From a virus (lineage: Duplodnaviria > Caudoviricetes), in IMG/VR virus record IMGVR_UViG_3300048839_000493, positions 1-50,770 of that record: a DNA stretch of 50,770 nt, one strand, 5' to 3'. Under the pieces are notes generated by a model that was not told the origin of the DNA, did no database searches, and saw nothing but the letters and a program-made list of their open reading frames with translations. Positions 15,188 through 50,723 of the stretch are shown in pieces (position 1 is the stretch's first letter; every line of letters starts with the position of its first letter). The translations under genes were made by a program, and so were the position numbers.

Positions 15188-16623
15188 TGCTTTTCCTGCT
15201 GCAAAAAGCGACCGAGCGCGACCGGATAGGGGGGGTTCCTCCCAGGGTCGGGCCACTTCGTGATCCGGTGACGGGGGTCACGGAGTTCGACAATCACCTG
15301 GACGGCTATCTCTGGTACACCAACCACCAAAACGGATGGCGGCAGGAGCCAGCCGGAGTTCTCGCCGCAGAGGCCCCGGATTCGGTCGGGCAGTACATCC
15401 TTTCCACGGCCCGGGTTCGGGTGACGGAGGAAACGGTTTTCTCCTTCCTCGGCACGATCAAATCCAGCAACAAGGCCCAGTCGTGGCACGGCGGCGTGGG
15501 CAGTCTCCAGTATTACGGCAACATCCTCCGGTTCAGAGTTTGTGATCCATCCCTCGCCCAGTATTACGCCGGGGACGACTACACCACGATCCATGATGAG
15601 ACCATCGGCGGCTGGCATGTTGACCACGTTTTCACCGTGACACTGCAACCAGGCGTCTATGATCTGGTTTTCGAGCACGCTAAGGTCTGGTTCATGGCGA
15701 ACAGCGTTGATGGCCACAGGTACGACTCGACCAATGACCTGACCTGGATGGTCGCTGCCTACGTCGCACCGGCCGGCAGTCCGACCAACGAGGCCACGAT
15801 CTCCGGCATGTCTGAAATCCTGCCGCTGATGATCACCGTCAGCAACAACGCCATAGGGGACCAGGAGGGGGACGAGTTCGGCGGGGAGATGGACGGACTG
15901 GAAGATCCGGCTTTCATATCGGTTCGGGCCTACACACCGACCAGTTTTGAAGGGGCGCTCGATGAGATCGGCCCGGGGATCATCAAGGTCAACGCCTTGC
16001 CGATCACGCAGGAGGTCAACTCCGTCCTGCCTCTTGCCCGGGTGACCGTCAACCCGCTCAACGTCGGCTCCTGGTGGACGGTCCCGCCGACGCTCTCCGG
16101 CCAGATGACGGACATCTACGTCTGCATCCTGACCGGGGCAGATGACGGCCTCGATGATCTCCGTATCCCGATCTCCAGTTTCACAGCCCGGATGAGGTCT
16201 GCCGAGCCGAGCTACCTTGGCGTAGTGATCCCGGCCATCACTGACTACGAGGACGAGATCAACCTCCGGCAAAACGGCGACATTGAGATATGGAAGGGGT
16301 TCCGGGACATCAACGGGACCGAGCACCTGGAGCGGATCATCTCCGTGAATTTTGATTACCTGCGTTTGGACCAGGGGGCGGCATCGGCATCCGGCACGAT
16401 GGTGGGCTACCGACAGCGGACCAATGATTCCCCGACCGAGCGGACCGTCTCGAACATCTCCTACCGGGCGGTTTCGGAGTCCGGCACCCTGCGCCTGCGC
16501 GGTGACGTTGATTTGTTCGTGCAGCCCGGGGACACCTGCGTGTTCGGCACCGATGAGTTTGTGATCGACACCATCACCTACATTGTGACACCGCAGCTTG
16601 CCTATATGGAGGTCGCTGAATGA
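15187..16623 (+). CDS. Tail tip/baseplate hub-like protein
   Basis: C-terminal RIPISSF.AR...VQPGDT pattern; position in the tail module. Confidence 0.55.
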   Translation: MLFLLQKATERDRIGGVPPRVGPLRDPVTGVTEFDNHLDGYLWYTNHQNGWRQEPAGVLAAEAPDSVGQYILSTARVRVTEETVFSFLGTIKSSNKAQSWHGGVGSLQYYGNILRFRVCDPSLAQYYAGDDYTTIHDETIGGWHVDHVFTVTLQPGVYDLVFEHAKVWFMANSVDGHRYDSTNDLTWMVAAYVAPAGSPTNEATISGMSEILPLMITVSNNAIGDQEGDEFGGEMDGLEDPAFISVRAYTPTSFEGALDEIGPGIIKVNALPITQEVNSVLPLARVTVNPLNVGSWWTVPPTLSGQMTDIYVCILTGADDGLDDLRIPISSFTARMRSAEPSYLGVVIPAITDYEDEINLRQNGDIEIWKGFRDINGTEHLERIISVNFDYLRLDQGAASASGTMVGYRQRTNDSPTERTVSNISYRAVSESGTLRLRGDVDLFVQPGDTCVFGTDEFVIDTITYIVTPQLAYMEVAE

Positions 16624-19247
16624 GCACCGCCAAAATCACCTCCAACCTGGGGGAAGGCCGGTACAAAATCATCATCGACCAGGATACCAGCGTCATCGAT
16701 GGCCGCCTGACCAAACTCTCCGAGCGGATCACGGAACTGGAGACCAGTATCCCGAAGCTCGATGACGAGCAGACCGCCGCCGCGGGCACCCTATATGTGA
16801 AGGTGGCAGCCCTGAACTCCTCCATCGCCGCATACAAAGCCAGCGGATACGCCGACGCCGAGCGGGCCGCAGTCCAGGAGGCGACGCTCGAATTTTTGGA
16901 CGCCGAGACCGCCGCCCTGACTGCCCGGACGAAATTGTCCGAGGCAAAACTCCAATTGCTCGCAGCGCAGAAAGAGCACGAGAAGGTCACGGCTCTCAAG
17001 GCGGCCATCACGACAGCCGAGAGGGAAGCCTGGGCGGTGGATCTCTCCACGGAACTGACAGTCGGCTCAACCGTCGGGATCGTGGAAATCAACGGTGAGA
17101 CGGGCCGGATCAACATTGCCGCAGCAGGCGCCGCAACTGCCGGGAAGATCACCCCGGCGCAGTCTATGACAGAGGCCCAGGCATACGCCGGGACAGCGAT
17201 CAAACCGGGTTGGCAGAAATTCCGCCCGACGTACCGGACGGGGATTATCACGGCCATTGATTACGAGACGGATACCTGCTCGGTCTCCCTGGACGCCGCT
17301 ACATCCTCCACGCTCCGCCCCAGGTCAAAGGATGCAGACGGAGAGATCACGGAACCGGTTGGATACGACATCAACCAGACCGCTGCACTGACCGATGTAC
17401 CGATCCATTACATGACCTGCAACTCGTCCGTGTTTGTCGTCGGGGACGCCGTGGTTGTGCAGTTCCAGGAGCAGGACTGGGGTCAACCGCAGGTGATCGG
17501 GTTTGTCTCCAACCCGGTCGGATGCGCCACACAGATTCAACTCCGGTTTGCCGCCGCCAGCGCCTACGCCGAATTCACGACCTACGCAAACGCCAGGATT
17601 GCCGAACTCGGGACCGCCGTTGACCATGCCGAATATCTGCGGGATACCTTCTGTGATGAGATCCTTGACCACATCCAGGTGCTTGAGGGAGAGGTCAAGA
17701 GCTTTTTCAAACTGCCGACAGGGGAATCACTGTATCAGGTTTGGAGTCAGGCCGAAATCGATCAACTCAAAGCGCCGTGGGAAGAGGTCAAGGACAGCAC
17801 TGCCGACCTGATCATTGACAACCTACAAGAGGCAATCGGGCGATGGGAGACTGCCCGGGACGCCGGGTCGGCGCTGGCCGACTCTCTCCTTGGAACCATT
17901 GCCGGATGCACCCTCCCGGCCAACGACATGACAGACGAGGAAATGGGGGATTTCATAGTCACACTCGATTGCTGCCGGACCGAGGAGGCAGAACCCGCCG
18001 CGATCGACACCTCCGGTTGGACCAGCTACCAGGCCAGGCAAATCCTCTCACTTTTCGGCCTCACTTTGTGGGATGAGGCACAAGACGCCTGTTCCCCGGA
18101 CATTTACGTCCGTCTCCGGGTGCCGTCTCTCGCCAGCTTCTCGGCCAGCCTCAAGGGTGCAGTTGACCAGGAAAACAAGCTCCTGCACATCATCGCCACA
18201 GATCACACCGGGAGCATTGACGGCCTGCCCGAGGGGTGGCTCGAAACACTCCGGCTCGTCCTGCGGATCGACGGGACAGGGGAGACGCTTTCTTACCCGA
18301 CCGAATCGGATTACACCGTGACCAGTTTCCAGTTGCCGGTTTACGGCACACCTACGTCGGCGACCTTCGACCTTCGGGCAACCGGGCGCCTGCTTGACTT
18401 TCCGACGACCTTCGGGGCCAGGGTGCCGAGCTGGAAATGGCGGACTGTGACCATCAATTTCAACCCAGTCGATGTTCCGTATGGTGAGATTGTGGAGTAT
18501 GAGGACGGCTACTCCTTCATGAGTCTCTATTTCCGGTACGTCGGCAACGCCTTCCAAAACAACTTGAATTCCGGTATAGGAGACACTTACCACCCGATCA
18601 GTTTCGCCCTGTCCAGGGCCGCGAACAGGTTCTACGGCGCTTATAACGAACACCCGATTACAACGGGAGTAGACAATCTGACGGTGATCGAAAAGGAAGC
18701 TGCTGAGATGTTGACCGACTTGGCCGAGGTCAACACCGAAGTCAACGCCTTCCCCTATCAGCGCGATTCGATCGACTCCGACCACTGGTATTTTCTGACC
18801 GGGACCGCCGCCGGGGACTGCGAGGACTATTCGATCACGAAAATCCAGAAACTCCTTGAGCGAGGCTGGTCGATTGACAACCTCCGGCTCGAATCCGGAT
18901 TCAGGGAAATTTCCTATGTGCCACCCCGCTATTACGACGACGGCAGCGAGATCCGCGCATTCGACGGCCATATGTGGGTGCTGGCAGACGTCGGAGGGAC
19001 CAAGTACGCCCTGACCAACGGCAACAACTCACTGTTCGATCCGGCAACACTCCGGGCGCTTTACCCCTACGCTCCCCATGTGCAGATCAGCGGGCGGACA
19101 TGGGCTCCCTACGACCTCCCGGCCTGGACGCCGGACATGGAACGGGCCGTGACAGTAGAGCCGCTGCCACACACCAGTTTTGACTTGCCGATCATCCGCA
19201 TGACAGGATCAATGCTCAACACCACGCCGGAGGTGCCTGCATCATGA
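16620..19247 (+). CDS. Tail tip protein with coiled coil and C-terminal transglutaminase-like cysteine protease (BTLCP/LapG-like) domain
   Basis: N-terminal coiled coil and RPTYRTG.IT.ID motif; C-terminal VN..VN..PY..D....D.W......GDCEDY...K...L...GW....LRL...GH.W. Confidence 0.75.
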   Translation: MSTAKITSNLGEGRYKIIIDQDTSVIDGRLTKLSERITELETSIPKLDDEQTAAAGTLYVKVAALNSSIAAYKASGYADAERAAVQEATLEFLDAETAALTARTKLSEAKLQLLAAQKEHEKVTALKAAITTAEREAWAVDLSTELTVGSTVGIVEINGETGRINIAAAGAATAGKITPAQSMTEAQAYAGTAIKPGWQKFRPTYRTGIITAIDYETDTCSVSLDAATSSTLRPRSKDADGEITEPVGYDINQTAALTDVPIHYMTCNSSVFVVGDAVVVQFQEQDWGQPQVIGFVSNPVGCATQIQLRFAAASAYAEFTTYANARIAELGTAVDHAEYLRDTFCDEILDHIQVLEGEVKSFFKLPTGESLYQVWSQAEIDQLKAPWEEVKDSTADLIIDNLQEAIGRWETARDAGSALADSLLGTIAGCTLPANDMTDEEMGDFIVTLDCCRTEEAEPAAIDTSGWTSYQARQILSLFGLTLWDEAQDACSPDIYVRLRVPSLASFSASLKGAVDQENKLLHIIATDHTGSIDGLPEGWLETLRLVLRIDGTGETLSYPTESDYTVTSFQLPVYGTPTSATFDLRATGRLLDFPTTFGARVPSWKWRTVTINFNPVDVPYGEIVEYEDGYSFMSLYFRYVGNAFQNNLNSGIGDTYHPISFALSRAANRFYGAYNEHPITTGVDNLTVIEKEAAEMLTDLAEVNTEVNAFPYQRDSIDSDHWYFLTGTAAGDCEDYSITKIQKLLERGWSIDNLRLESGFREISYVPPRYYDDGSEIRAFDGHMWVLADVGGTKYALTNGNNSLFDPATLRALYPYAPHVQISGRTWAPYDLPAWTPDMERAVTVEPLPHTSFDLPIIRMTGSMLNTTPEVPAS

Positions 19248-20677
19248 GTTTTGCGGCAAAAAGCGTCGTAATAGACATCGCGGATAACTGGGGTCACGCT
19301 TCTTACATCGGTTTGCGGTCAGTTGATTTGTATCTCAACGGGGCATTGGTTGAAACAGAATCGACCTGTTACCACACATCGGTTTATTCTGCATCCTATT
19401 CTGCCGAACACGTTTTTGACACATCGAAATCAAAAATAGGATCGTGGGATAGCACCTCATGGGTGTCTGGCAACGGTAATACTACCAACCAGAGACTCGT
19501 TGCCGTCTTTGATTCCGAAATTGAGTTTGACGCGATTGTGGTCAACAACCAGCACAATTCAGGCGCCGCATCCGATTGCGGTGCAAAAAACATTGTAATC
19601 ACCATCACTGAGGACACCTATACAACCACAACATATGGCGCCAGTGTGACAAATGGCACTGATATTTTTGACGGACAACTCGGACAGCACGTTGCGGTTA
19701 ATGAGGCGGACGGTGAAATCGTTCTGGACCAGACGGGGGTGTGGGCCAAATCCGTTGTTTTCGATTGCGCTGACAATTGGGGTGATGCCTCCTATATGGG
19801 CATCAGAGCGATCGAGTTAACCGCCGATTCGTCAGTAATTTCGTTGGCCAGTGCGGATTTCAACGCGTATTCGACAACATCGAGCAACGCTCATTTCGTT
19901 GCCGATTTTGCCTTTGAAACTGCCCTATCAAAAACTGGATCATACTCAAGAACATCCTGGGTGTCTTTATCTGGCAATGTGACCAACCAGCGCTTGACGA
20001 TTCGGTTCTGTAACCCCTTATGGTTCGATGGGATCACGGTCAATAATGGTCACGATTCTGGGTCTGATACGGACATAGGGGCAAAGGCCGTCAAGATTTA
20101 CAGGACTGCCGAGTCAACGACATCAACCACTTACGAAGATGCCGTATCCGGTGGAACCAAAATATTCGATGGCCAACTACTCCAACACAGCGCCGCCGAT
20201 GAGGCCGACGACCAGGAACTTACGCTCGATGACGGCAGCGTTGATATCACCTCCGACGGGATCACCACGGGTTCGCCCGCCATGGGGACTCCGACCATGG
20301 GCCAAGTTCACGCGCTAACAGGAGCCGGGATCGCGGCTGGTGCTCCAGATGTTGATGCGCCGAGCATCGGCCAGATCCATGCCCTAACCGGGTCAGGCAT
20401 CACCGCCGGATCTCCCACGCTCGGAGCCCCGGACGTGATCAAGGACGACCTGACAGCCTCCGGCATAGTCACTGGCATCCCGTCGGTAGGCGCACCAACG
20501 ACCGGGCAGGTCCACGGTATCACAGCCACAGGCATCACAACCGGCTCGGCCAGAGTTGGGACACCTGCCATCGACTGGACACAGCCGGGGACGCCGGAAA
20601 GCAGGACATGGAGAATCCCGGCAGAAGGTCGGGAATGGAAAATATTGTTTGAAACGAGAACTTGGAGGATATCATGA
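19244..20677 (+). CDS. Fibre/receptor-binding-like protein with two tandem beta-sandwich domains and G/T/P repeats
   Basis: A ~160 aa unit (AKSVV.D.ADNWG.ASY.G.R...NQRL...IFDGQL.QH) occurs twice, followed by GI.xGsP.xG.P repeats. Confidence 0.7.
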   Translation: MSFAAKSVVIDIADNWGHASYIGLRSVDLYLNGALVETESTCYHTSVYSASYSAEHVFDTSKSKIGSWDSTSWVSGNGNTTNQRLVAVFDSEIEFDAIVVNNQHNSGAASDCGAKNIVITITEDTYTTTTYGASVTNGTDIFDGQLGQHVAVNEADGEIVLDQTGVWAKSVVFDCADNWGDASYMGIRAIELTADSSVISLASADFNAYSTTSSNAHFVADFAFETALSKTGSYSRTSWVSLSGNVTNQRLTIRFCNPLWFDGITVNNGHDSGSDTDIGAKAVKIYRTAESTTSTTYEDAVSGGTKIFDGQLLQHSAADEADDQELTLDDGSVDITSDGITTGSPAMGTPTMGQVHALTGAGIAAGAPDVDAPSIGQIHALTGSGITAGSPTLGAPDVIKDDLTASGIVTGIPSVGAPTTGQVHGITATGITTGSARVGTPAIDWTQPGTPESRTWRIPAEGREWKILFETRTWRIS

Positions 20678-21048
20678 CCGACGTACTGCACAACGACGTC
20701 TTTGACAGCGGTCTCAACGTCATCGACACCAACACGGAAAAACTCTACATCCTGAGCGCTGACCCGGGCCTGACCTGGGCGAACATCGCAAGCTATGCCC
20801 TTGGGAACAAGGCCACACCGGCCATTGCCGCACCGTCAGACCGATCCGGCGGCGGGCGTGAGGTGGTTGTGTCCGCCATCGCAGACGGGACAGTCACCGA
20901 CACCGGGACAGCGACACATTACGCCCTCACCGATGACAGCGCCGAAAAGATCCTGGCCGCCGGGGATCTGGCAAGCTCTCAGGCCGTGACGTCCGGGAAC
21001 ACGTTCACCCTGACTCAATTTGCCATCGGCATCCCTGACCCGGCATAG
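20674..21048 (+). CDS. Virion structural/fibre-associated protein
   Basis: GT.THYAL.D...LAAG.L..SQ.VTSGN.FTL pattern; GGAGG precedes ATG 20674. Confidence 0.6.
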   Translation: MTDVLHNDVFDSGLNVIDTNTEKLYILSADPGLTWANIASYALGNKATPAIAAPSDRSGGGREVVVSAIADGTVTDTGTATHYALTDDSAEKILAAGDLASSQAVTSGNTFTLTQFAIGIPDPA

Positions 21049-21056
21049 GAGGCGGC

Positions 21057-21326
21057 ATGGACGGACGTTACAGCAAAGACCCTGATGCTATGCTCGATTA
21101 CACTAACGACTGGTCAGACTGGCTGGATGGCGACGTGATCTCATCCAGCTCATGGACCGCCGACACAGGGATCACGGTTTACGGCGACAGCTACGACGAC
21201 GAGACGGCTACCGCATGGATTTCCGGCGGGACGGTCGGCACGGCCTACGACATCACAAACCAGATCGTCACGGCTGCTGGCCGGACAGACGAACGAACGA
21301 TACGAATCACAGTGAGGGAAAAATGA
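21057..21326 (+). CDS. Fibre adaptor-like virion protein
   Basis: KDPDA.LDY..DW..WL...WISGGT.G..Y.IT..I.T..GRTDERTI motif common to small phage virion proteins. Confidence 0.65.
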   Translation: MDGRYSKDPDAMLDYTNDWSDWLDGDVISSSSWTADTGITVYGDSYDDETATAWISGGTVGTAYDITNQIVTAAGRTDERTIRITVREK

Positions 21327-21703
21327 AAAAGATCCTGATCATCCTGGCTATCCTGGCCCTGGCCGCAGCATCTTACGCCGCCGAGGCAACGCAGCGCGAT
21401 TACAATTTCCGGGGATTTCACTACGCCGAAACCATCGCCACAACCGAAACCGGCGAGACGGTAAAGATCCCGACCATCCAGATGTGGCGCAATATCACCG
21501 TCACCCTGGTGGCCGGAGCCAACACCGGCAAGATTCAGACCACCACCAGCTCCGACGCCGCGGTTGCCGCAGGGACCGCGACATGGGCAGACTGGGATCT
21601 CGGGACGCAGACAGGCACCGTCAGCGACGTGATCACCGGCCCAGTGACAGGCATCCGCGGGGTCAGCGTATCCGGGGAGGTGAAAATTGAGATCGTTTAC
21701 TAA
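21323..21703 (+). CDS. Small beta-rich protein with Sec signal peptide
   Basis: MKKILIILAILALAAASYA-AE; ATGA coupled to the upstream gene. Confidence 0.7.
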   Translation: MKKILIILAILALAAASYAAEATQRDYNFRGFHYAETIATTETGETVKIPTIQMWRNITVTLVAGANTGKIQTTTSSDAAVAAGTATWADWDLGTQTGTVSDVITGPVTGIRGVSVSGEVKIEIVY

Positions 21704-23384
21704 GCTGGTCCTCCTGGTCCTGCTCATCCCTGCGCTTGCCTGGGGCGGACAGTGGCAGGGCTCGCAGTGGAGGGGCGGGCTATGGGCCGGGTCGATCTGG
21801 AAAAGCTCACAGGGCTACGGCGACTACGCCCTCTACCTCGACACCGCCCGATACGGCACCAAGGACATGGTATCCCGCAACTCCCTTACCGCCACCATCG
21901 CCGGAGCGCGGACCCTGGCTGATGGCACAGCGGTTGTGGTGAACCAGGCGGCTATCGAGGCGGTGGGGGTGAGGACTGCGCCGGTGGTGAGTAATCTGAT
22001 CACCGGGACTGCTCCGGTTGATTTGACGATAGATGGCTGGCTAAAAACAAGGGCGACAGTGTCTCCGAGCGCAGCAGCGGCACCGTTTGGTGGCGGTTTT
22101 GCGTATAAGGTGATTGCATCATCCGATGCGTCCACAACGCATAAAATATTCTCTCCGATATTCATAGTTAATAGTGGGGGATCGTATTGTGCGAGTATAT
22201 ATGTCAAGGCAAGCGAGTATGATTATGTCTCAATCGCAATAAAATCGTCTATTGAGTCGGAGATCGGATTCCCAACTCCAGTGATATTTAATTTGCTTGC
22301 TGGTACAGTTAGTGGGAGTGGGGAAATCGTACCTGTTGCAGATGATTGGTATCGTATCATAGTGACTGGGGCTGCAAACAGTACAACGGATGCGCGATTG
22401 GTGTTATATTTATGCGACAATATAGGGAATACCGTTTTCACAGGCGACGGTGAATCAGGCATCTACGCCTGGGGCGCACAAGTCACAGCATCCGCCTACC
22501 CCCTCCCCCTCAACACCTCCGGCTCCGCATGGGCAACCGAGATGGGCGGTGACGATGCCGGGGTGTATCTTGATGACATTGACACCAATTTCCCGGATTT
22601 GTATGCGGCGTTGGGTGGTGATGGGGTTAGCCTGGGAGGAGATGTGGCTGGTGATTTAACCGCATGGATAGTATCTGGCGGTGACGCAAATAATTATCTA
22701 TCAGCACTTGGGGGTGGCGTATATAGGCTTGTTGCTGACGGGACCGTTGCTTTTAACATTAAAAAACAAATACTTATTTCGAGTAAATATTATCGACATA
22801 CGCTGACTGTATTAACTAGCTTTGGACAGGCTGGAGTAAAACTCAACCAAGATGGTGATTCTGACTGTGGATCTTTACCCGGCGTTGGGTTGTCTGTCGT
22901 TGATAATAGTGGCACAGACACATACCTGGAAATTTTTAGACAAACAGCAGGCAAAACAACAGACGTTACGTTTACATTGACAACAAAACCAATTCAAGCG
23001 CAGGGATCTCTTAGGTTCGGCTGGACGCCGGGGTGGGATAAGGCTGACATCAGTGGTGAGAACAATATTCTAAAATGCGGGGACTTCGTTGTCCAGTACG
23101 ACGCTGACAACGGGCTTATCGAACTCAGCGACGGCACGAATACAGCCTCAGTTGCGTATGATGCGGTGCAGGATACGCAGGTATGGTTGCACGCCCAATG
23201 GCTCACAGACACAATGCGTGTAGGTTACTCGACAACCAAAACCGGAGAGGTCACCTGGGGCAGCGATGCCACGTTTGCCGGTACATTCACGCCGGTGACA
23301 CAACTCAATCTGTCTCACACGGCATCACATCTGCAATGGATCGGCCCCGACATCACGGTAACCAAGGAGGTGACGGCATGGTAA
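21687..23384 (+). CDS. Fibre/spike-like multidomain protein with signal peptide
   Basis: MRSFTKLVLLVLLIPALAWG-G N-terminus; YCASIYVKA...WYRI...GIYAWGAQV spike/fibre-type domain; LamG-like C-terminus. Confidence 0.7.
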   Translation: MRSFTKLVLLVLLIPALAWGGQWQGSQWRGGLWAGSIWKSSQGYGDYALYLDTARYGTKDMVSRNSLTATIAGARTLADGTAVVVNQAAIEAVGVRTAPVVSNLITGTAPVDLTIDGWLKTRATVSPSAAAAPFGGGFAYKVIASSDASTTHKIFSPIFIVNSGGSYCASIYVKASEYDYVSIAIKSSIESEIGFPTPVIFNLLAGTVSGSGEIVPVADDWYRIIVTGAANSTTDARLVLYLCDNIGNTVFTGDGESGIYAWGAQVTASAYPLPLNTSGSAWATEMGGDDAGVYLDDIDTNFPDLYAALGGDGVSLGGDVAGDLTAWIVSGGDANNYLSALGGGVYRLVADGTVAFNIKKQILISSKYYRHTLTVLTSFGQAGVKLNQDGDSDCGSLPGVGLSVVDNSGTDTYLEIFRQTAGKTTDVTFTLTTKPIQAQGSLRFGWTPGWDKADISGENNILKCGDFVVQYDADNGLIELSDGTNTASVAYDAVQDTQVWLHAQWLTDTMRVGYSTTKTGEVTWGSDATFAGTFTPVTQLNLSHTASHLQWIGPDITVTKEVTAW

Positions 23385-23854
23385 GCGGCAGACGTTGGTA
23401 CGACTGGGCATACTGGCCCGTATTGGTTGCAGCACTGGTTCTTGTGATTTCGGTCCTCGGTGCGAAGTTGGCTTTTTCGCTGGAGGTCTACTGGACCCTC
23501 CCGGCTGGCTCCTGTGTGGGAACTGAATGCCGGGTGCCTCTTGAAGGGGATGTGCTGACAATGGACAGCATGAGAAATTCCCTGGTTCTGTACGAAGATG
23601 CCGAAAAGACAATCATCGTCACATGCGTGGAGCGCCGGTCCCTGCTGGCTTTCCTGGAGGAAACAGGGGGGCGACCGCTTGATCCGAACACGGCGGCAGA
23701 AATGGGGATCGGGGCGTACTACCTTGGCAAATCGTTTGCGGATGTGCTGGCGAAATATCCAGAACTGGATGGGACGTACAGCGTGATCAATGAGGATGGG
23801 AGCGAGGCGACGTTCCCGATAATAACGGAACGGCATTTTTTAGGATGTGAATGA
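23378..23854 (+). CDS. Exported or membrane-anchored protein
   Basis: AAGGAGGT RBS before ATG 23378; hydrophobic segment VLVAALVLVISVLGAKLAFS. Confidence 0.6.
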   Translation: MVSGRRWYDWAYWPVLVAALVLVISVLGAKLAFSLEVYWTLPAGSCVGTECRVPLEGDVLTMDSMRNSLVLYEDAEKTIIVTCVERRSLLAFLEETGGRPLDPNTAAEMGIGAYYLGKSFADVLAKYPELDGTYSVINEDGSEATFPIITERHFLGCE

Positions 23855-24336
23855 TGGAAATCACCGATGTTTTGATGCAAAGGCTTGACGAATTGGAACT
23901 CAGGGTTGCGGCCCTGGAGGCGAACAAGAAACCTTCTCCCGCGCCGGTGATCCCCGTTGACCCGGTGCCGGAACCGAAACCGCAGTACCAGGACGCTTCC
24001 GCATTCTGGAAAACCATGTGCAATGCCCAAGCAGGCACGAAAACCGAGATCCCCGGGTGGGGCTACATGGTGGTTGCCGTGCAGTACGGGTTCACCCTGG
24101 TGGAATGGCACTGCGACAAGATCAAGGACTCCCCGGAATGGTTCGGTCCCAACGCCGACATGAACCAGATGCGCCGGGTCTACCGGGAGGGTCTCGACGC
24201 CCTGTTCGTTCCGGCCTGCGGCGAGGATTGGCACATCGGATACAACGCCGGGAGCGAGACGGGGCTCACAAGCGAGGGCACCGGAATACCGGGGTATCTG
24301 CCGTGCGGACGGCGCAAAGTCAACGGGCTGAAATAA
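23851..24336 (+). CDS. Hypothetical protein (coiled coil, Pro-rich linker, Cys-containing domain)
   Basis: Coupled ORF; LDELELRVAALEA followed by PSPAPVIPVDPVPEP. Confidence 0.55.
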   Translation: MMEITDVLMQRLDELELRVAALEANKKPSPAPVIPVDPVPEPKPQYQDASAFWKTMCNAQAGTKTEIPGWGYMVVAVQYGFTLVEWHCDKIKDSPEWFGPNADMNQMRRVYREGLDALFVPACGEDWHIGYNAGSETGLTSEGTGIPGYLPCGRRKVNGLK

Positions 24337-24354
24337 CGCCATGGGAGGCGCACC

Positions 24355-24597
24355 ATGGTTGAACGACTGATCGACGGCATGACAGACACGGAGCGTAAAA
24401 TGCTGAAATGGGCCTTGATTTCACTGTATTCCATCATCACGGGTGCGGTCCTCTGGCTCTGCGTGGACCGTGTCAACATGCCGCATGAATACGTCCGGCT
24501 CGAACGGTATCAGGCAGACCAATGCCGCCTGGAAAAGCAGAACGAACGCATCCTGACCCAGGTTGATAAGATCCTGGAAGAGTTGAGGAAGAAATGA
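24355..24597 (+). CDS. Single-TM membrane protein, holin/antiholin candidate
   Basis: One hydrophobic helix plus coiled coil; coupled to the endolysin gene. Confidence 0.5.
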   Translation: MVERLIDGMTDTERKMLKWALISLYSIITGAVLWLCVDRVNMPHEYVRLERYQADQCRLEKQNERILTQVDKILEELRKK

Positions 24598-25019
24598 ACC
24601 GTCTCGCCCTGGAACTGATCAAGCGGCATGAGGGGGCGAACCGCAAGAACGGGCGGCACGTCCCCTACCGCTGCACGTCCGGGGCGCTGACTATTGGCTA
24701 CGGTACACAGATAGAGGACGGGATCGACGAGAACGAAGCCGTGATGCTCTTGATCTACCGGGCCGAGGCAGCAGAAGCCGAGCTTGAGCTTTTGTTCGGT
24801 GATGCCTGGGATTCCATGCCGATGGAGCGGAGAGCGGTACTCATCGACATGATGTACCAGCTTGGGTCCAAACGGTTCAGGAGTTTCAAGCGGTTCATCC
24901 AGGCCGTTCGGATCGGGGATCTCCCCGGCATGGTCAAAGAAATGTTGGACAGCAAGTGGGCAACACAGACGCCCGGACGGGTCGAGGATCTGATCCGGGT
25001 GCTTGGAGCCCGTGCATAA
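24594..25019 (+). CDS. Endolysin, T4-lysozyme-like (GH24)
   Basis: IKRHEG...PYRCTSGALTIGYG...DM.YQLG...EMLDSKWATQTPGR. Confidence 0.9.
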   Translation: MNRLALELIKRHEGANRKNGRHVPYRCTSGALTIGYGTQIEDGIDENEAVMLLIYRAEAAEAELELLFGDAWDSMPMERRAVLIDMMYQLGSKRFRSFKRFIQAVRIGDLPGMVKEMLDSKWATQTPGRVEDLIRVLGARA

Positions 25020-25084
25020 AACGCACGAACTGAACCATGAAAAACACCAACTGTCACACACGTATTACATGGATGAGGTGAAAA

Positions 25085-25450
25085 ATGGAGTGGCTCTCAA
25101 CAGTATTCAAGCCCCTGTCTCTTGCTTGGGGTATGGTCCAGGCCGGCACGAACGGCAAGATTCTGAGCGTCTTTGACACGGTTCCGGCACTCGTCGGCAA
25201 CAACCTATACCTGATTCTGATCGGGCTGTTTGCGCTGAAGTGGCTGGCAAAAAAGACCTCGTGGGCCGGAGACGACAAGATCAGCACCATGCTGTCGGGT
25301 TTTGTTGCGCTCGTCATGCGTGGGGGTTTCACCAAGGAAAACGTTGCCAAATACCTGGAGGAAAAGGCCAATGTTTCTGACCGAACTGAACGCAAGGCAC
25401 CTGCCGGACGGGACAATACGACTCCTGACTCCGCTCATCTGGCAGACTGA
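25085..25450 (+). CDS. Membrane protein, holin candidate
   Basis: Hydrophobic segments and a KT.W.GDDK motif; next to the endolysin. Confidence 0.5.
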   Translation: MEWLSTVFKPLSLAWGMVQAGTNGKILSVFDTVPALVGNNLYLILIGLFALKWLAKKTSWAGDDKISTMLSGFVALVMRGGFTKENVAKYLEEKANVSDRTERKAPAGRDNTTPDSAHLAD

Positions 25451-25715
25451 CACGGATGTGGTCACGGTCCCCCGTGGGTTCATCTCTGACGGGGCATCGG
25501 TTCCGCGCCCGTTCTGGTGGTTCTGTCCCCCGCTTCGTGGGCCTCATGCCAGGGCCGCAGTGCTGCATGACCACCTGTGTGTTTTGGGCCAGGATCAGCG
25601 CCGGGCTGACCGGATCTTCCTGGAGGCGCTGGAGGCTTGCGGGGTTGGATGGTTTCGGAGGCGGGTGATGTTCAGGACTGTGAGTGTCTACCAGTGGATG
25701 AGGGGGCGATATTGA
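25371..25715 (+). CDS. DUF1353 family protein
   Basis: TVPRGFISDGASVPR..W...PP.....AAVLHD.L...AD.IF.EAL; ATG 25371. Confidence 0.8.
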   Translation: MFLTELNARHLPDGTIRLLTPLIWQTDTDVVTVPRGFISDGASVPRPFWWFCPPLRGPHARAAVLHDHLCVLGQDQRRADRIFLEALEACGVGWFRRRVMFRTVSVYQWMRGRY

Positions 25716-26860
25716 GCGAGCCATTGACCGACGCACAACAGAGAGCCTACGACGCATACCACCGACTCGGGAGCGAGACCAAAGCGGCCCGGGAACTCGG
25801 CATCAACCGAAACGGTCTGATCAAAACGCTTTGGTGGTGCGCTAAGAAGGGTTACCCGGTGAGCCATGACACGTTTTGCGAGCAGGCCCCGGTTGGCTTC
25901 GAGCTGCGGAAATCAACTCTCCAAGTCAACGCAGGCGGGGAGATCGTACAGCGGTGGGACCGGGTTTCGCCCATCGGGTACAGTGAGCAGCAGATAACGG
26001 ACCATCTCCGTTCCCGGATCCCTGCCGCTGCCCTGGATCTCCCGCGCCGTCCAACCAATGCCGGACTGATGCTGGAACTTTTGCTGTATGATTTACATCT
26101 CGGGTGCCATGCCTGGGCCAGGCAAACCGGCACAGCCTACGACACCAAGATTGCCCGGGCGCTCATGATCCGAGCAGCCGAGCGGATCTACTCCATGACC
26201 GGGCCTGTTGCCGAGTCAGTCATCGTCCTGGGCGGCGACAATCTCCATGCTGATAATCGAAACAACCAGACCGAGCGGTCCAGACATGCCCTTGACGTGG
26301 ACACTCGGTATCAGAGATCCATCGAGGCGATAACCGAGGGCATGACAACGGCCATCGAAACGGCGCTGTCCGTCTCCGGGGCCGTGACAGTCTATGTCCT
26401 GTCGGGTAATCACGACCACCACGCATCCATAGGGCTTGCCCTGATCCTGGCCGCATACTACCGCAACGAGCCACGTGTCACGATTGATACCAGCCCGAGC
26501 AAGCATCGGCTGCACGTTTTTGGAGGCAATGCGTTTCTGTATTCACATGGCGACACCGGCACGGAAAAGCGCCTTGCCGGGTACATGCTCCAGCGGATTA
26601 TCCAAGGAGGCATCACGGGTGTGGACCGTATGCTTGTTCGGCTTGGGCATCTGCACCAGCGGTCCCGGGCGATCATACCTGACATGACCGAGGAATCCGG
26701 GGTGGTCATTGAACGGTTTCCGACCTTGGCCGCGCCCGACTCGTTCGCGCATGAACAGGCATACGTCAACCAGCGGATGACCGTGGCGAATCTGTGGCAC
26801 AGGAAACACGGGTTGCGGAGCAGGATGGAGATAGGTGTTGGGGAATTGGTTGACAACTGA
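25712..26860 (+). CDS. Calcineurin-like metallophosphoesterase with N-terminal HTH
   Basis: DLHLG, GGD..H, GNHD, HGD and GHLH motifs; AARELGINRN HTH; probable TTG start at 25712. Confidence 0.85.
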   Translation: MSEPLTDAQQRAYDAYHRLGSETKAARELGINRNGLIKTLWWCAKKGYPVSHDTFCEQAPVGFELRKSTLQVNAGGEIVQRWDRVSPIGYSEQQITDHLRSRIPAAALDLPRRPTNAGLMLELLLYDLHLGCHAWARQTGTAYDTKIARALMIRAAERIYSMTGPVAESVIVLGGDNLHADNRNNQTERSRHALDVDTRYQRSIEAITEGMTTAIETALSVSGAVTVYVLSGNHDHHASIGLALILAAYYRNEPRVTIDTSPSKHRLHVFGGNAFLYSHGDTGTEKRLAGYMLQRIIQGGITGVDRMLVRLGHLHQRSRAIIPDMTEESGVVIERFPTLAAPDSFAHEQAYVNQRMTVANLWHRKHGLRSRMEIGVGELVDN

Positions 26861-33256: not shown

Positions 33257-33600
33257 TTGTCCCTCCATTCCAGCAACTCTCCCAAGTTCTCGAACACCGG
33301 GATACCAAGCTCTTTTGCCCGGGCGATCTCGGCAAGTGTCCCCTTGCTCGATTCCCAGCCGGGAACCAGAAAAACGGCATCGGATACTTCGAGCCATGCA
33401 AGGGAGTACTGGTAGAATTGATCGACGGTTAGCGTGGTATCTGGGCATTCAATGGCAAAGGACTTATCATGCCACGGGCAAAAGGGGGCCATGTCCAAGA
33501 GGAAAACATTCGCCGCTATTCGTTCTCCCCTGCCGATGTTTTGCAGGACCGTAAGGACATCAGGGCCGCTGTATGGGCCGGCGATATAGACTCGTTTCAT
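33253..33600 (-). CDS. DUF4406 / nucleoside deoxyribosyltransferase-like protein
   Basis: VYIAGPYS, PFCPW, SDAVFLVPGWE.SKG..AE...A.ELGIPVF. Confidence 0.8.
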   Translation of the reverse strand: MKRVYIAGPYSGPDVLTVLQNIGRGERIAANVFLLDMAPFCPWHDKSFAIECPDTTLTVDQFYQYSLAWLEVSDAVFLVPGWESSKGTLAEIARAKELGIPVFENLGELLEWRDK

Positions 33601-34823
33601 TTTCGCATCCATTTTTCTTTTTTCCATTGTTCTTTCCTTCTTCTCATAAGCTCCAAATATTTTTGGTATGCTTCGTTTTTATGTTGAGAAAAGCCAAGTC
33701 CCTTACACCAATAATCATTTCTAAGTAAAGATTTACATACTCTTCTCCACGATGGAACGTCTCTTTTCATCTCAAGGTTTTCTTCGGCCTCATCAGGAAT
33801 TCCGTTAGGATAACCACGCTCTATCCACCACTTCTGGAATAATATTATTTTATTTTCAAAGTGCTCTTTGGTTTTTGGCGGCATAGACGATAAGAGCAGT
33901 TTAGCAAAAGATTCCCATGTATGATTACCAGGTTTAGTTATCTTGTTGTATCCATTGATATTACCGTTTTCTTGTATATATAGTGCCCCGGAGTTTGCTC
34001 CAGAAACACGGGCTACTATTTTTGCCCATGTTTCTGGTTCAATGAGATGAAAAAGCCAAAGCCCTCTGCGCTGATCATCACCGTAGGGTTGACATATACG
34101 TTGATTGCTTAATTTTACGCCAGCCATTTGCATATAGTCATAAAGTTTATTGTATTCTTTATCCCTATTTTTACCATGATATGCCCAAATATCTTGGGTC
34201 CTCCAGTCATAGATTGGATAAACATTATAAACATGATCTGTAACCTTTGTTGTCCACTGTTTTCCGTCATATGTTGTTTTTTTCGCACTTGCTATTGTTC
34301 TGAAACGATTCAAGCTCTCATCTGATCGTATCCCAACGAGACAAGCGCAATTTTCAAATTTAGCATACCACTCTCCGAACAGCGGAACAAATTCTTCAAA
34401 TTCCATATCTTTATAAAAAAAATCAAAATAAGATTCGTCATGGATAGCCTGGGTGGGCAATTCGCGTATCCAGTCTGATTTCTTATTGTCGTCCCATGGT
34501 GTCCACTTTGGTTCATAGACAGAAACTGCATTTCTAAGGGCAATTGGAAGGCAAACCCAATACAGGTCTATAATATTTTTATACTTAGCGAACATTGTGT
34601 TTGCGTGGTTTATTGTAAGTTTGTATTGTCCCTCAAGGTCAACAAGCAAGACACCAAATTTTCTATTTCTTTTTATTGCTTCATCAGCAACAAGGTGGAA
34701 CATAACAGTTGAATCTTTGCCAGCCGAAAAAGAAATATAAATTTTTTCAAACTCATCAAAGACAAAAGATATTCTCTGCCTTGCTGCGTCTAAAACATTT
34801 ATCCCTAATCCACGCTTTGACAA
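33597..34823 (-). CDS. ibrA: IbrA-like PAPS-reductase-family protein (DUF3440)
   Basis: PP-loop SFSAGKDS, DLEGQY, VGIRSDESLNR, YPIYDW...DIW, QRICQPYGDDQR and SWRR.CK..LRNDYWC. Confidence 0.85.
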   Translation of the reverse strand: MSKRGLGINVLDAARQRISFVFDEFEKIYISFSAGKDSTVMFHLVADEAIKRNRKFGVLLVDLEGQYKLTINHANTMFAKYKNIIDLYWVCLPIALRNAVSVYEPKWTPWDDNKKSDWIRELPTQAIHDESYFDFFYKDMEFEEFVPLFGEWYAKFENCACLVGIRSDESLNRFRTIASAKKTTYDGKQWTTKVTDHVYNVYPIYDWRTQDIWAYHGKNRDKEYNKLYDYMQMAGVKLSNQRICQPYGDDQRRGLWLFHLIEPETWAKIVARVSGANSGALYIQENGNINGYNKITKPGNHTWESFAKLLLSSMPPKTKEHFENKIILFQKWWIERGYPNGIPDEAEENLEMKRDVPSWRRVCKSLLRNDYWCKGLGFSQHKNEAYQKYLELMRRRKEQWKKEKWMRK

Positions 34824-35203
34824 TTTTCATACTCCCATTTTTCGATGGCTTTATCTGCCATTGCGTTAGCGTTTATTTGCTGTTGCTCTGTCAACCTTGA
34901 CCAAGCGAATCTGACTATATCCTCAGGGCAATTAAAGGCATAAGCGCAAGCCGCGTGACCTATCCATGCCCTTCTGTTTTGAGTAATATTTGAAAGATTG
35001 TGTTCACATGAATATTTCCAATCCTTCACAACCCTCATCATCCACTTGCCATACAATTCGTGATCAGAAGTAAACATAACCGCCATCTCTATCCAAATTC
35101 TACGTTCGTTTACTTGCCCCCACATATTATACCTTGATTCTTCCCAAAGGTGCCATGGGTGATAAATTCTTTTAATCGATCGACTCAATGTTGTCATCCT
35201 CAC
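34805..35203 (-). CDS. Trp/Cys-rich protein between ibrB and ibrA
   Basis: RIYHPW..WEE...MW...WKYSCEHNL....NRRAWIGHAAC; overlaps both neighbours; exact start uncertain. Confidence 0.7.
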   Translation of the reverse strand: MRMTTLSRSIKRIYHPWHLWEESRYNMWGQVNERRIWIEMAVMFTSDHELYGKWMMRVVKDWKYSCEHNLSNITQNRRAWIGHAACAYAFNCPEDIVRFAWSRLTEQQQINANAMADKAIEKWEYENCQSVD

Positions 35204-35825
35204 TTGTTAAAAGTTCGGCTTCCCATGCCTCTGAAAATTCATGGTCTGCAAACATGTCGGCAAGGCCAGCTATCTGTTTAAGTCGCAAAATTTCATCTTG
35301 ATCCATTCCCAACTCAATAGCTATTTTTTTATCTGACCAATTTCTTCTTTTCAACTCAAGAACTATCTCTGACATGGAATCTACCTTGTGTTTCCCTCGC
35401 GCCCTATTGTGTCTTATCGTTGACGCAATGCGGTCGCACCTACCTTGCTGACTGTCTCTGATTGTAACAACAGGAAGATACCCATTGAGCCTTTCTACAA
35501 CGTCTTTGCACTCCTTCCCAACCCTATTTCTATGAAATCCGTCTATGACTTCGTGGTTTCCAATTTCATCGAGCATTGCAACTATTGGTTGTGTATAACC
35601 ATCAGTTATTATTGAATGCCTCAATAATTCCATTTCGGGTGGCGCAACTGCGTTTGGGTTGTAGTCATTGGCATAAACAGATTTGTTTCTAACCCACAAA
35701 ACGCAATCGACCGGCTCATTTTTAAATGGGCTTATATTGTGAAGCGCAATTTTAATTTCGTTAATTGCTTTTATCTTTTCATCAATTTGCATATGCTCTA
35801 AACGATTCAGTATTTGGTCAATCAT
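35172..35825 (-). CDS. ibrB: IbrB-like ParB/sulfiredoxin-domain protein
   Basis: EPVDCVLWV, ANDYNPN.VAPPEM.LL, DGYTQPIV, IDGFHR and STIRHNRARGKH; GGAGG before ATG 35825. Confidence 0.88.
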   Translation of the reverse strand: MIDQILNRLEHMQIDEKIKAINEIKIALHNISPFKNEPVDCVLWVRNKSVYANDYNPNAVAPPEMELLRHSIITDGYTQPIVAMLDEIGNHEVIDGFHRNRVGKECKDVVERLNGYLPVVTIRDSQQGRCDRIASTIRHNRARGKHKVDSMSEIVLELKRRNWSDKKIAIELGMDQDEILRLKQIAGLADMFADHEFSEAWEAELLTSEDDNIESID

Positions 35826-35904
35826 AAAATCCTCCAATTGAAAATTTGATGGTTTGTAAAATACAGTTATAAGATATACACGTTTTTCAAGTCAATGCTA
35901 TACC

Positions 35905-49584: not shown

Positions 49585-49824
49585 ATGATTAAATGCACAG
49601 AGTGTCAGGCGGATTGTGTCAGGACGAAGGAGTGCGTTGACCACAACTACAAAGATTTCTCGACTCGGTCGTCGTGGGATGCGGCAAAGCTCAAGCGCAA
49701 GATGGGAAGACGCGACGGAGGGGACCGCAGGACTTTCCAGTATGCGGTTGTAATCGACCGGAGACAGGCCGACCGTAGGACCACGGACCGGAGGGGCAAG
49801 ATGAGGTGGAGGGATGCAAGGTGA
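49585..49824 (+). CDS. Small Zn-binding protein with Arg-rich DRR repeats
   Basis: CTEC..C....C followed by GRRDGGDRRTFQYAVVIDRRQADRRTTDRR. Confidence 0.55.
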   Translation: MIKCTECQADCVRTKECVDHNYKDFSTRSSWDAAKLKRKMGRRDGGDRRTFQYAVVIDRRQADRRTTDRRGKMRWRDAR

Positions 49825-50723
49825 CTGTCGATGTAGAAATGTGTGAAAGATGTGGAAGACCAAAGGTAAGTGAAAAAAAGAGTTACAAAGGTCGTAAAGT
49901 TTGCGGTTATTGTATTTCTTCATTTCAAAATATCGGCAAACACACAAGAAACCTACCTGTTCCAAAGAGACTTGATGTTTTTAAATACATGAACAATGTG
50001 GTGGAAAATTGCAAAGCAAAATCAATAATTTGTTGCGATTGCGGCTTTATACTGCCGCTTGATGAATTTTATTTTCAGAGAGATAAAAAGAGAATAGATG
50101 GATTTAGGCATGTATGCAAGAAATGCAGGGGGGTTGGTTTCCAAACAGTTCATCTAAAATATAGCAAAGAAGACCACTTGATGGTAAAAAACAAGTGTAG
50201 GCATGGCCCGGTTTCTTTTTCTACTTACAGCGAAAAATTAAAATATGCAGAAAAAGTATATTGTGGAGAAAACGGTCTTTTGCTTGTTAGATGTAAATAT
50301 TGTGACAGGCGTTTTAATCCAAAAAGGTTAAGCGTTGAGTCAAGGATTAGATCACTTATGGGTCAAATACAGGGTGAAAATTCATTTTATTGTTCTGAAG
50401 GGTGCAAAAGATCATGCCCCACATTTAATACAAGAACCAAAGAAAGAACTTATAAAAAGAACTCCTCTCGAGAGGCCAACCCAGAACTTAGGAAAATTGT
50501 TTTAAAACGAGATGGCTACAAGTGCACAAAATGTGGCGCTAAATCTAAAAAAACAATACTACATTGTCATCATGTAATGCCAGCTAAATCAGATCCGATG
50601 CTGGCCAATGACCCTGACAACTGTATCACTGTTTGCAAACAATGCCATCAAAATATCCATGGCTCTGATGGATGTAAGTACAGTGATCTTAGGGGTTGTG
50701 CATCACATGATGCCTACCTATAA
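49806..50723 (+). CDS. HNH endonuclease with multiple Zn motifs
   Basis: LKRDGYKC..CG.....HCHH............NCITVC..CH..IH; directly upstream of cos/terS. Confidence 0.85.
   Translation: MEGCKVTVDVEMCERCGRPKVSEKKSYKGRKVCGYCISSFQNIGKHTRNLPVPKRLDVFKYMNNVVENCKAKSIICCDCGFILPLDEFYFQRDKKRIDGFRHVCKKCRGVGFQTVHLKYSKEDHLMVKNKCRHGPVSFSTYSEKLKYAEKVYCGENGLLLVRCKYCDRRFNPKRLSVESRIRSLMGQIQGENSFYCSEGCKRSCPTFNTRTKERTYKKNSSREANPELRKIVLKRDGYKCTKCGAKSKKTILHCHHVMPAKSDPMLANDPDNCITVCKQCHQNIHGSDGCKYSDLRGCASHDAYL

Follow-up and report, generated by a model that had tools for sequence, protein, structure and literature searches.

A putative Sec-exported spike base and fiber cassette at the end of the tail module of a siphovirus-type phage genome

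Located on the + strand of the IMG/VR virus record IMGVR_UViG_3300048839_000493, at positions 21323 to 23854, are three consecutive genes, designated g5, g6, and g7, whose products begin with hydrophobic, signal-like N-termini. The stretch of DNA analyzed here, referred to as the window, comprises the 50,770-bp record at its full length; its completeness is estimated at 95%, and the genome is of the siphovirus type. The g5 protein is a jellyroll of approximately 105 residues that belongs to a large phage family and is a putative spike base, and g6 encodes a candidate fiber. Because these two proteins carry signals while related phages make the same pair without them, the phage probably sends virion-type parts, namely a spike base and a fiber, out of the cytoplasm.

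The g5 gene, 21323-21703 (+), encodes 126 amino acids. Its ATG follows the sequence GAGGGA and overlaps, as ATGA, the stop codon of a gene for a Gp77-type adaptor. The start codon of g6, 21687-23384 (+), 565 amino acids, is a TTG positioned 5-7 nucleotides 3' of GGGGAGGTG, a strong Shine-Dalgarno (SD) sequence. The g6 frame opens just two codons 5' of this TTG, with no further ATG, GTG, or TTG in frame until residue 60. The g7 gene, 23378-23854 (+), 158 amino acids, starts with an ATG behind AAGGAGGTG and shares 7 nucleotides with the end of g6. Each of the three genes overlaps its neighbors and has an SD sequence, and no consensus promoter was observed just upstream of g5-g7. It had been considered in a preliminary description of this sequence that the true starts might lie downstream of the hydrophobic segments. 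Such is not the case, and the signals are real features rather than start-codon artifacts.

For the signal test, a gene was scored as having a signal if its n-region was positive and its mean Kyte-Doolittle hydropathy over nine residues (H9) reached at least 2.5 in the first 25 residues, and the sample was a curated list of 31 + strand late genes within positions 1-26860. The signal calls throughout are based on our own hydropathy script, inspection, and comparison with homologues rather than on SignalP or TMHMM. Only three of the 31 genes tested positive, namely g5, g6, and g7 with H9 values of 3.67, 3.37, and 3.57, respectively. The next-highest value, 2.22, belongs to an 80-residue protein with one transmembrane segment encoded at 24355. 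The run of three overlapping genes with signal-like N-termini, as first described, was thus borne out, and the statement that the upstream genes at 19244, 20674, and 21057 encode proteins without signals was likewise correct.

The signal peptide of g5 is delineated by residues 1-19, 21323..21379 (+), with an n-region charge of +2, a 13-residue core, and a predicted cleavage site of S-Y-A|A. That of g6 extends over residues 1-20, 21687..21746 (+), again with an n-region of +2, a 12-residue core, and predicted cleavage at A-W-G|G. Both N-termini display the classical succession of n-, h-, and c-regions (n-h-c) with small residues at -3/-1, and neither contains a lipobox. Indeed, a regular-expression scan of all starts in the window with the general lipobox pattern gave no convincing lipobox in or near 21323-25800. 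The corresponding segment of g7, residues 1-34, 23378..23479 (+), has a predicted cleavage site of A-F-S|L. It is ambiguous in type because a 13-residue n-region with an RR pair (S-G-R-R-W-Y) is followed by a 20-residue uncharged stretch; there is also a lysine in the c-region. This N-terminus may be cleaved as a signal, may act as a signal anchor, or may be of the twin-arginine translocation (Tat) type. It is highly probable that the g5 and g6 proteins are exported with cleavage and that the conserved domain of g7 lies outside of the cytoplasm.

The AlphaFold model of g5 (pLDDT 91) consists of a helix, residues 2-21, followed by a jellyroll β-sandwich formed by residues 28-126. A word-indexed search retrieved 48 relatives of the protein, and an exhaustive profile search retrieved 655 cluster representatives at E<=1e-3. 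The survey of signals covers the 194 family members whose sequences were examined. The script flagged 21 of these, and one, P0137, in which the segment was an internal strand, was dropped by eye. The remaining 20 carry textbook Sec signals with MKK or a similar start, a hydrophobic core, and an A-x-A-like end. All other members begin at the aligned mature residue, as exemplified by M-A-V-V-E-M-T-K-R versus ...A-H-A|A-V-T-E-M-T-K-R, and the T-K/Q-R motif of the mature arm (TKR/TQR) is common to both forms. Only a few bases separate each signal-less gene in the fetched loci from the gene before it, and thus no hidden upstream signal is present. Within the 20 signal-bearing members the signal sequences are divergent, their layout is common, and the mature domains are conserved. 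The signal is kept with drift, and conservation sets in at the cleavage site, in these 20 proteins and in all three members of the g7 family; for g6 only one locus, L022, is comparable. The comparison of homologues for signal retention, as had been suggested in the preliminary description, accordingly favors cleavable signals grafted exactly onto the N-termini of signal-less relatives.

On a FastTree phylogeny of 189 members the signal state changes approximately 10 times, as compared to 18-20 times in the ten listed of 200 shuffles. The tree was calculated from the last 104 residues (~100 columns), and for so short a protein it is uncertain and does not distinguish gain from loss. Across the changes the mature domains stay 50-68% identical, which fits an unchanged core function. 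In five loci (L006, L011, L012, L013, and L037) the g5-type gene lies beside major head, neck, or tail-terminator genes and not after the hub gene. Such contexts fit a small accessory capable of decorating different parts of the particle.

With g5, Foldseek led to many small uncharacterized phage proteins and, against the Protein Data Bank (PDB), to Ena2A fibers as the best match (E 1.3e-3), with YomS at rank 20 (E 8.3e-3). Only weak matches were obtained from Pfam and PHROGs: phrog_2682 and phrog_8801 align over the signal region, and phrog_17426 "adhesin" covers residues 1-118 at an E-value of 0.091, there being no significant domain. The family profile gave only chance antibody matches against PDB sequences. 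Scans with two family members, P0041 and P0018, yielded signal-less loci only, and those with the window's own g5 and g7 yielded one signal-only match and one spurious match. A blastn search of positions 19000-25100 against cultured phages gave no match, and tblastn searches with g5 and g7 likewise gave none.

The g6 protein is best described as a putative fiber composed of a Sec-type signal, an N-terminus with aromatic repeats, a central domain of the glycan-binding type, and a C-terminal part in common with a protein from another locus, L007_554. In the predicted mature N-terminus, 21747..21800 (+), tryptophans occupy mature positions 3, 8, 13, and 18, that is, with a period of 5. The central domain, residues 102-275, 21990..22511 (+), was matched by phmmer against PDB sequences to the head-spike fiber Rcc01080 of the Rhodobacter capsulatus gene transfer agent, RcGTA (6tb9_F3 chain residues 86-260, E 1e-11). 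The same region has 13 fiber-like homologues in metagenomes, and none of the 13 bears a signal. By tblastn this region also matches 27 phage records; the 15 matches listed are annotated as host specificity, minor tail, tail, and structural proteins, with several hypothetical proteins, one gp7, and one record without annotation. The Atlas clusters closest to g6 in language-model features consist of viral proteins 614-760 residues in length. L007_554 is a signal-less homologue of g6, matching over the C-terminal part (E 3e-7) and weakly at the N-terminus (E 0.06). Neither g6 nor g7 has a match in Pfam or PHROGs. The view that the mature proteins are of the virion type was upheld by the homology of the g6 central domain to the fiber of the head spike of RcGTA and to phage tail and structural proteins, and by the occurrence of the g5 family in head, neck, and tail modules.

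The usual order in the loci of g5 relatives is a hub protein gene, the g5-type gene, and a variable fiber-like gene. A signal-less g5 homologue with a visible downstream gene is found in the 16 loci that were counted (L004, L005, L007, L010, L016-L018, L020, L021, L023, and L026-L031). Left out of the count were loci in which the contig ends at the gene (L009, L014, L015, L019, and L011), one with a broken copy (L025), and those with the g5 homologue in a head or neck module (L006, L012, L013, and L037). In this last group L013 has a signal-bearing neighbor after a gap, and the other three have none. The downstream gene is signal-less in 15 of the 16 loci, L031 being the exception, and 14 of these 15 neighbors start with M-x-x-W/F. 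A signal-bearing g5-type gene is present in three loci, namely the window, L022, and L008. The next gene also bears a signal in the window and in L022, which is a metagenome contig; in L008 it is an unrelated open reading frame of 90 amino acids, after which the contig ends. Fisher's test for co-occurrence of the signals on base and fiber gives a p value of 0.02, or 0.05 with L008 included.

Note that predicted cleavage leaves G-Q-W in the window and G-M-W in L022, with an aromatic residue at mature position 3. The same position is aromatic in the signal-less M-G-L-W start once the initiator methionine has been taken off, as it is before glycine. The mature N-terminus of g6 thus appears to be the counterpart of the M-G-L-W start of the signal-less fibers. 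Aromatic residues also recur with a period of 5 in the N-termini from L020 (five times) and L007.

The locus that forms the exception, L031:6962-11346, is derived from a Nitrospirae metagenome-assembled genome contig. Here three consecutive proteins of 723, 254, and 375 amino acids, each with an MKK-type signal-like N-terminus, come after a g5 homologue that has no signal, and this trio is encoded between a terminase-like gene and an SU10-type portal gene. A signal-bearing protein is found nearby in L027 and in L013 as well. To judge from these genes, exported proteins may be common at the position downstream of g5 in this phage group. No second, signal-less copy of g5 or g6 is present in the window. 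A signal-bearing decoy made beside a signal-less virion copy was also considered and dropped, given that the window has a single copy of each gene.

Directly 3' of the fiber gene, and coupled to it, lies g7, in a place where fiber assembly helpers often sit; that g7 is such a helper is a guess. By sequence it encodes an exported or membrane-anchored protein of 158 amino acids with four invariant cysteines. Only two homologues were retrieved from a large protein collection, with identities of 60% and 54% (53% by BLASTP). The N-termini of the three proteins are all hydrophobic and unrelated in sequence, and conservation begins, at L/I-E-x-Y-W, with the residue that follows each predicted cleavage site (A-F-S|L, A-Q-A|I, and A-Y-S|L). 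That the cysteines conserved behind an export signal are even in number suggests disulfides outside of the cytoplasm. With respect to the Tat consensus motif, two of the three members contain an RR pair and also a c-region lysine, with signal lengths of 34-37 residues, but their core is a very hydrophobic one, and a short signal of the Sec type is found in the third member. The n-region of one homologue, P0066, contains R-R-R-F-W. The model of g7, with mixed strands and short helices, is unusable at a pLDDT of 46, and an Atlas search gave low scores only (0.77; TM-score <=0.40). The protein was also considered as the i-spanin of a two-component spanin, which would combine an N-terminal transmembrane segment, a helical coiled-coil periplasmic domain, and a partner o-spanin lipoprotein. 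The N-terminal hydrophobic segment is present; this candidate was rejected, as the lipobox scan gave no lipoprotein partner and the poor model has mixed strands and short helices.

The remainder of the + strand late region encodes the small and large terminases, portal, protease, major head protein, neck proteins, tape measure protein (10820), and the hub or tip protein (16620), and the replication genes occupy the far end of the genome. No integrase or repressor was found among the scanned genes of the window. The large terminase, TerL, is ~45% identical to terminases from phages of Gram-negative hosts, and this kinship provides the sole and weak hint that the host, whose type is here guessed, is Gram-negative. 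The single genome matched was a contig from a Nitrospirae metagenome-assembled genome. PADLOC gave no match for six proteins of the g5-g7 region.

The tail hub or tip protein, 875 amino acids, 16620..19247 (+), contains a domain of the bacterial transglutaminase-like cysteine proteases (BTLCP, Peptidase_C93; Pfam PF06035, 5.6e-10, residues 694-757), and by BLASTP it matches the hub proteins of L010, L008, and L005 with E-values of 4e-32 to 2e-20. Residues 697-815 weakly match a Methanosarcina virus protein. The N-terminal part of this hub corresponds to the gene directly 5' of the g5-type gene in most relatives. Marinobacter phage PS3 has the hub N-terminus in common with the window but is without the g5/g6 cassette.

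Between the hub gene and g5 lie three genes whose products are without signals. The first encodes a fiber of 477 amino acids, 19244..20677 (+), with an H9 of 1.53 and with homologues L008_449 (E 2e-40) and L012_460 (E 2e-35). In it a module of ~165 residues is repeated in tandem (residues 1-161 and 168-336), each copy matching the same part of L008_449 and L012_460, and the C-terminal stretch has glycine-rich repeats that end in Q-V/I-H-A/G-L/I-T. The second, 20674..21048 (+), encodes a small structural protein of 124 amino acids that matches phrog_240 "head protein" (7.7e-7) and, weakly, Pfam Gp80 (0.088). The third, 21057..21326 (+), encodes an 89-residue Gp77-type fiber-tail adaptor (Pfam PF23148, E 3.6e-27, 95.1 bits versus a cut-off of 27). 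The earlier proposal that the exported proteins join the particle by way of the 20674 and 21057 products did not fare well, as in the fetched tail-tip loci the g5-type gene directly follows the hub gene with no adaptor-sized open reading frame between them, these loci not having been scanned for Gp77. The Gp77-like adaptor more likely serves the 477-residue fiber for this reason.

On the other side of g7, and coupled to it through an ATGA overlap of 4 nucleotides, is the gene for a signal-less protein of 161 amino acids, 23851..24336 (+), with a coiled-coil N-terminus, a proline-rich linker, and a C-terminal part containing four cysteines; no family match was obtained for it in Pfam, PHROGs, or PADLOC. 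The lysis region follows at 24355..25450 (+). It is formed by the 80-residue protein with one transmembrane segment (24355), a phage lysozyme of 141 amino acids (24594-25019), and a membrane protein of 121 amino acids (25085-25450). The lysozyme is without a signal and matches Pfam Phage_lysozyme (5e-7) and the endolysin family phrog_7 (1e-13). Elsewhere in the window, on the - strand at 33597-35837, a PAPS-reductase-like protein (phrog_2302, 2e-87) adjoins a ParB-like protein (phrog_2159, 1e-66); the pair may represent a DNA-modification module. The G+C content is lower, at 0.40, at 34-36 kb. An HNH endonuclease is encoded at the right end (49806-50723) and the small terminase at the left end (77-610), such that the two would be neighbors if the map is circular. 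Adjacent HNH endonuclease and small terminase genes are the arrangement of HNH-dependent cos packaging.

According to the reading favored here, g5 and g6 would be the phage's only copies of a two-gene spike cassette consisting of a small jellyroll base and a fiber with a domain of the glycan-binding type and, at its N-terminus, an aromatic peptide for docking. Most related phages would make both proteins in the cytoplasm. A cleavable Sec signal would have been grafted exactly onto each mature N-terminus in the window, as in a minority of the relatives, and the two proteins would be exported late in infection along with the cysteine-rich g7 protein. Signal peptidase would then restore N-termini identical to those of the cytoplasmic forms. 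We infer that the exported base and fiber would fold and pair outside of the cytoplasm and would still constitute a virion spike, one that encounters completed particles only once the compartments have been joined by holin lesions or lysis, hence "late arming." Late arming is favored by the conservation of the mature sequences and of the docking motifs, by the presence of one gene copy only, and by repeated switching without divergence. Taken as a whole, the statement that g5 and g6 are a Sec-exported variant of the spike base-fiber cassette for the late arming of virions is put forward tentatively, with somewhat less than an even chance of being correct. A broader proposal appears doubtful, namely that some tailed phages have a periplasmic branch of virion assembly with Sec export, trimming, folding perhaps aided by g7, and clipping onto particles at holin lesions, and that the route has been switched repeatedly.

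Several observations weigh against the late arming of virions, and a number of them would be accommodated if the exported g5 and g6 proteins, with g7, formed a free glycan-binding complex, made late and either retained in the envelope or released, that is not part of the virion. Such a complex might cover the receptor polysaccharide of the dying cell and its debris against re-adsorption of progeny, or it might aid lysis and release as proposed for XepA. Indeed, the top matches of g5 in VIA-align are the C-domain of XepA (Z 8.9, rmsd 2.4, 87 residues) and YomS (Z 8.7, rmsd 2.7, 88 residues), at identities of 8-11% and with Z values only ~1.5 above unrelated jellyrolls (background 7-8). Lower in the list (Z 6.5-7.5) are the needle protein of a podophage, a cement protein, and a protein of a head turret, and no RcGTA chain is found among the 50 matches listed in either VIA search. 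XepA is reported to be exported during PBSX development, to be absent from particles, to be encoded beside the PBSX lysis genes, and to lack a transmembrane domain (PMC6834076). The genes g5-g7 are positioned directly upstream of the lysis region, and the separate signal-less fiber set at 19244-21326 could serve the virion. The g5 forms also differ in that a C-terminal aromatic residue (Tyr/Phe) is present in 18 of the 20 signal-bearing members versus 11 of the 169 signal-less ones (one of them having Trp), with a raw Fisher p of 9e-16. On supported branches there are only three independent pairs, approximately two of which point in the same direction, and the association may stem from kinship or may be an adaptation to a new compartment or partner. 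Co-occurrence of the signals is based on two loci only, and both L031 and, in another gene context, L013 pair a signal-less g5 homologue with signal-bearing neighbors; large signal-bearing proteins at this place are found in L027 as well. No homology of the base could be detected when the g5 family profile was aligned with the RcapNL homologue of the RcGTA base Rcc01079 (hhalign probability 0.1), so that the analogy of g5 to that base rests on fold class, gene order, and the fiber domain. Furthermore, export and cleavage of g5 and g6 are predictions, no precedent for virion attachment after lysis was found for tailed phages in the open-access literature, and no description of Sec-exported virion proteins of tailed phages was found there. 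A free complex is nonetheless considered somewhat less likely than late arming, for the mature sequences and both docking motifs are conserved with signal-less forms from head, neck, and tail modules, the homologous RcGTA fiber is located on particles (PMC7296036), and a periplasmic protein in a diderm host, the host type being guessed, cannot reach surface receptors before lysis.

Two further explanations concern the N-termini and the origin of the genes. If the hydrophobic N-termini remained uncleaved, as membrane anchors or as RcGTA-like docking peptides, the proteins would be used from the cytoplasmic side. The RcGTA and RcapNL fibers do start with hydrophobic Gly-Leu repeats, which are described as binding the base, the 20-residue uncharged stretch of g7 is long enough for a membrane anchor, and the g5 and g6 signals are themselves predicted from script, inspection, and homologues. 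The full n-h-c layout of g5 and g6, with a core of 12-13 residues between a basic n-region and small residues at -3/-1, makes this explanation improbable, as do three other features: the base, g5, carries a hydrophobic N-terminus too, which a docking-peptide role does not explain; the 20 signal-bearing g5 members differ in sequence yet keep the layout; and the hydrophobic segment precedes the aromatic docking motif, whose register is that of the signal-less fibers. The genes might instead be ordinary prophage morons for lysogenic conversion or superinfection exclusion, comparable to the envelope proteins of lambda, T5, and phi80. Envelope proteins encoded beside tail-fiber genes are a known theme (Lom, Llp, and Cor), and all three genes of the window have signal peptides. 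Superinfection exclusion in lysogens, one of the roles suggested earlier, is unlikely, however, because no integrase or repressor was found among the scanned genes and translation of g5-g7 is coupled to that of the late operon. Given also that the genes overlap their neighbors with no consensus promoter just upstream, that neither a lipobox nor a PADLOC match was found, and that g5 and g6 are homologous to structural-module proteins rather than to known exclusion proteins, an origin as morons is very improbable indeed.

Textbook accounts place the morphogenesis of tailed phages wholly in the cytoplasm. The cassette described here belongs to the structural module, is conserved, and occurs both with Sec signals on its two partners and without them; predicted cleavage restores identical mature ends. 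It amounts to a natural test of the compartments in which accessory parts of the virion can be produced. Should the exported form continue to arm the virion, it would represent a new assembly route and a way to make receptor-binding parts that are disulfide-bonded or incompatible with the cytoplasm. If it does not, spikes would have been recruited repeatedly as exported late proteins, which would link them to the poorly understood XepA and YomS. In either case annotation calls for caution: a moron should not be called from a signal peptide in a tail module alone, nor a virion protein from a fiber-like domain alone.

Among known phage systems, Lom and Bor of lambda, Llp of T5, and Cor of phi80 are envelope proteins that are encoded beside tail-fiber or lysis genes and that function in receptor masking or exclusion. 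They resemble the g5-g7 proteins in being exported, which for the latter is a prediction, and in being encoded at the distal end of the tail module. They differ in that they are lipoproteins or outer-membrane barrels unrelated to virion parts, whereas g5-g7 are without a lipobox and g5 and g6 are homologous to structural-module proteins. Late phage proteins that use the host Sec machinery before lysis are exemplified by the Sec-exported and signal-arrest-release (SAR) endolysins (PMC6834076). These are lysis enzymes, however, and the endolysin of the window (24594-25019) has no signal. XepA and YomS, from the Bacillus prophages PBSX and SPbeta, are jellyroll pentamers of the "lytic cassette" that resemble g5 as its top fold matches and in their position next to lysis genes. 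At 8-11% identity, homology to g5 is not established, their hosts are monoderm, and their description, in the portion of the text available, includes neither a signal peptide nor a partner fiber with a matching N-terminus.

The closest counterpart is the RcGTA head spike, which is a pentamer of the jellyroll base Rcc01079 (GhsA) with one fiber, Rcc01080 (GhsB) (PMC7296036). As described there, residues 2-10 of the fiber, alternating between Leu/Ile and Gly, form a five-point star in the hydrophobic pockets of the pentamer; the base gene lies just upstream of the fiber gene, and the fiber is seen on particles (PMC7296036). Both spike genes are required for adsorption, and homologues occur in prophages, according to a second report (PMC5026251). 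In RcapNL the spike pair is located at the end of the late genes, and the fiber begins with a Gly-Leu repeat. The fiber N-termini of RcGTA and RcapNL, in so far as the available text describes them, are Gly-Leu repeats without the n-h-c layout, unlike g6 with its n-h-c signal, and the docking repeat of RcGTA differs from that of g6 in both period and residues. With a homologous fiber domain and a base that is not detectably homologous, g5 and g6 would, by analogy, qualify only by half as an RcGTA-type spike. The likeness nevertheless extends to the order of the two genes, a small jellyroll base and then a fiber, to the fiber domain homologous to g6 residues 102-275, and to a periodic hydrophobic fiber N-terminus that is paralleled by a Trp every five residues at the predicted mature end of g6. 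It is on the strength of the fiber-domain homology, the jellyroll base, and the periodic aromatic N-terminus that g5 and g6 are read as probably working in the manner of the RcGTA spike.

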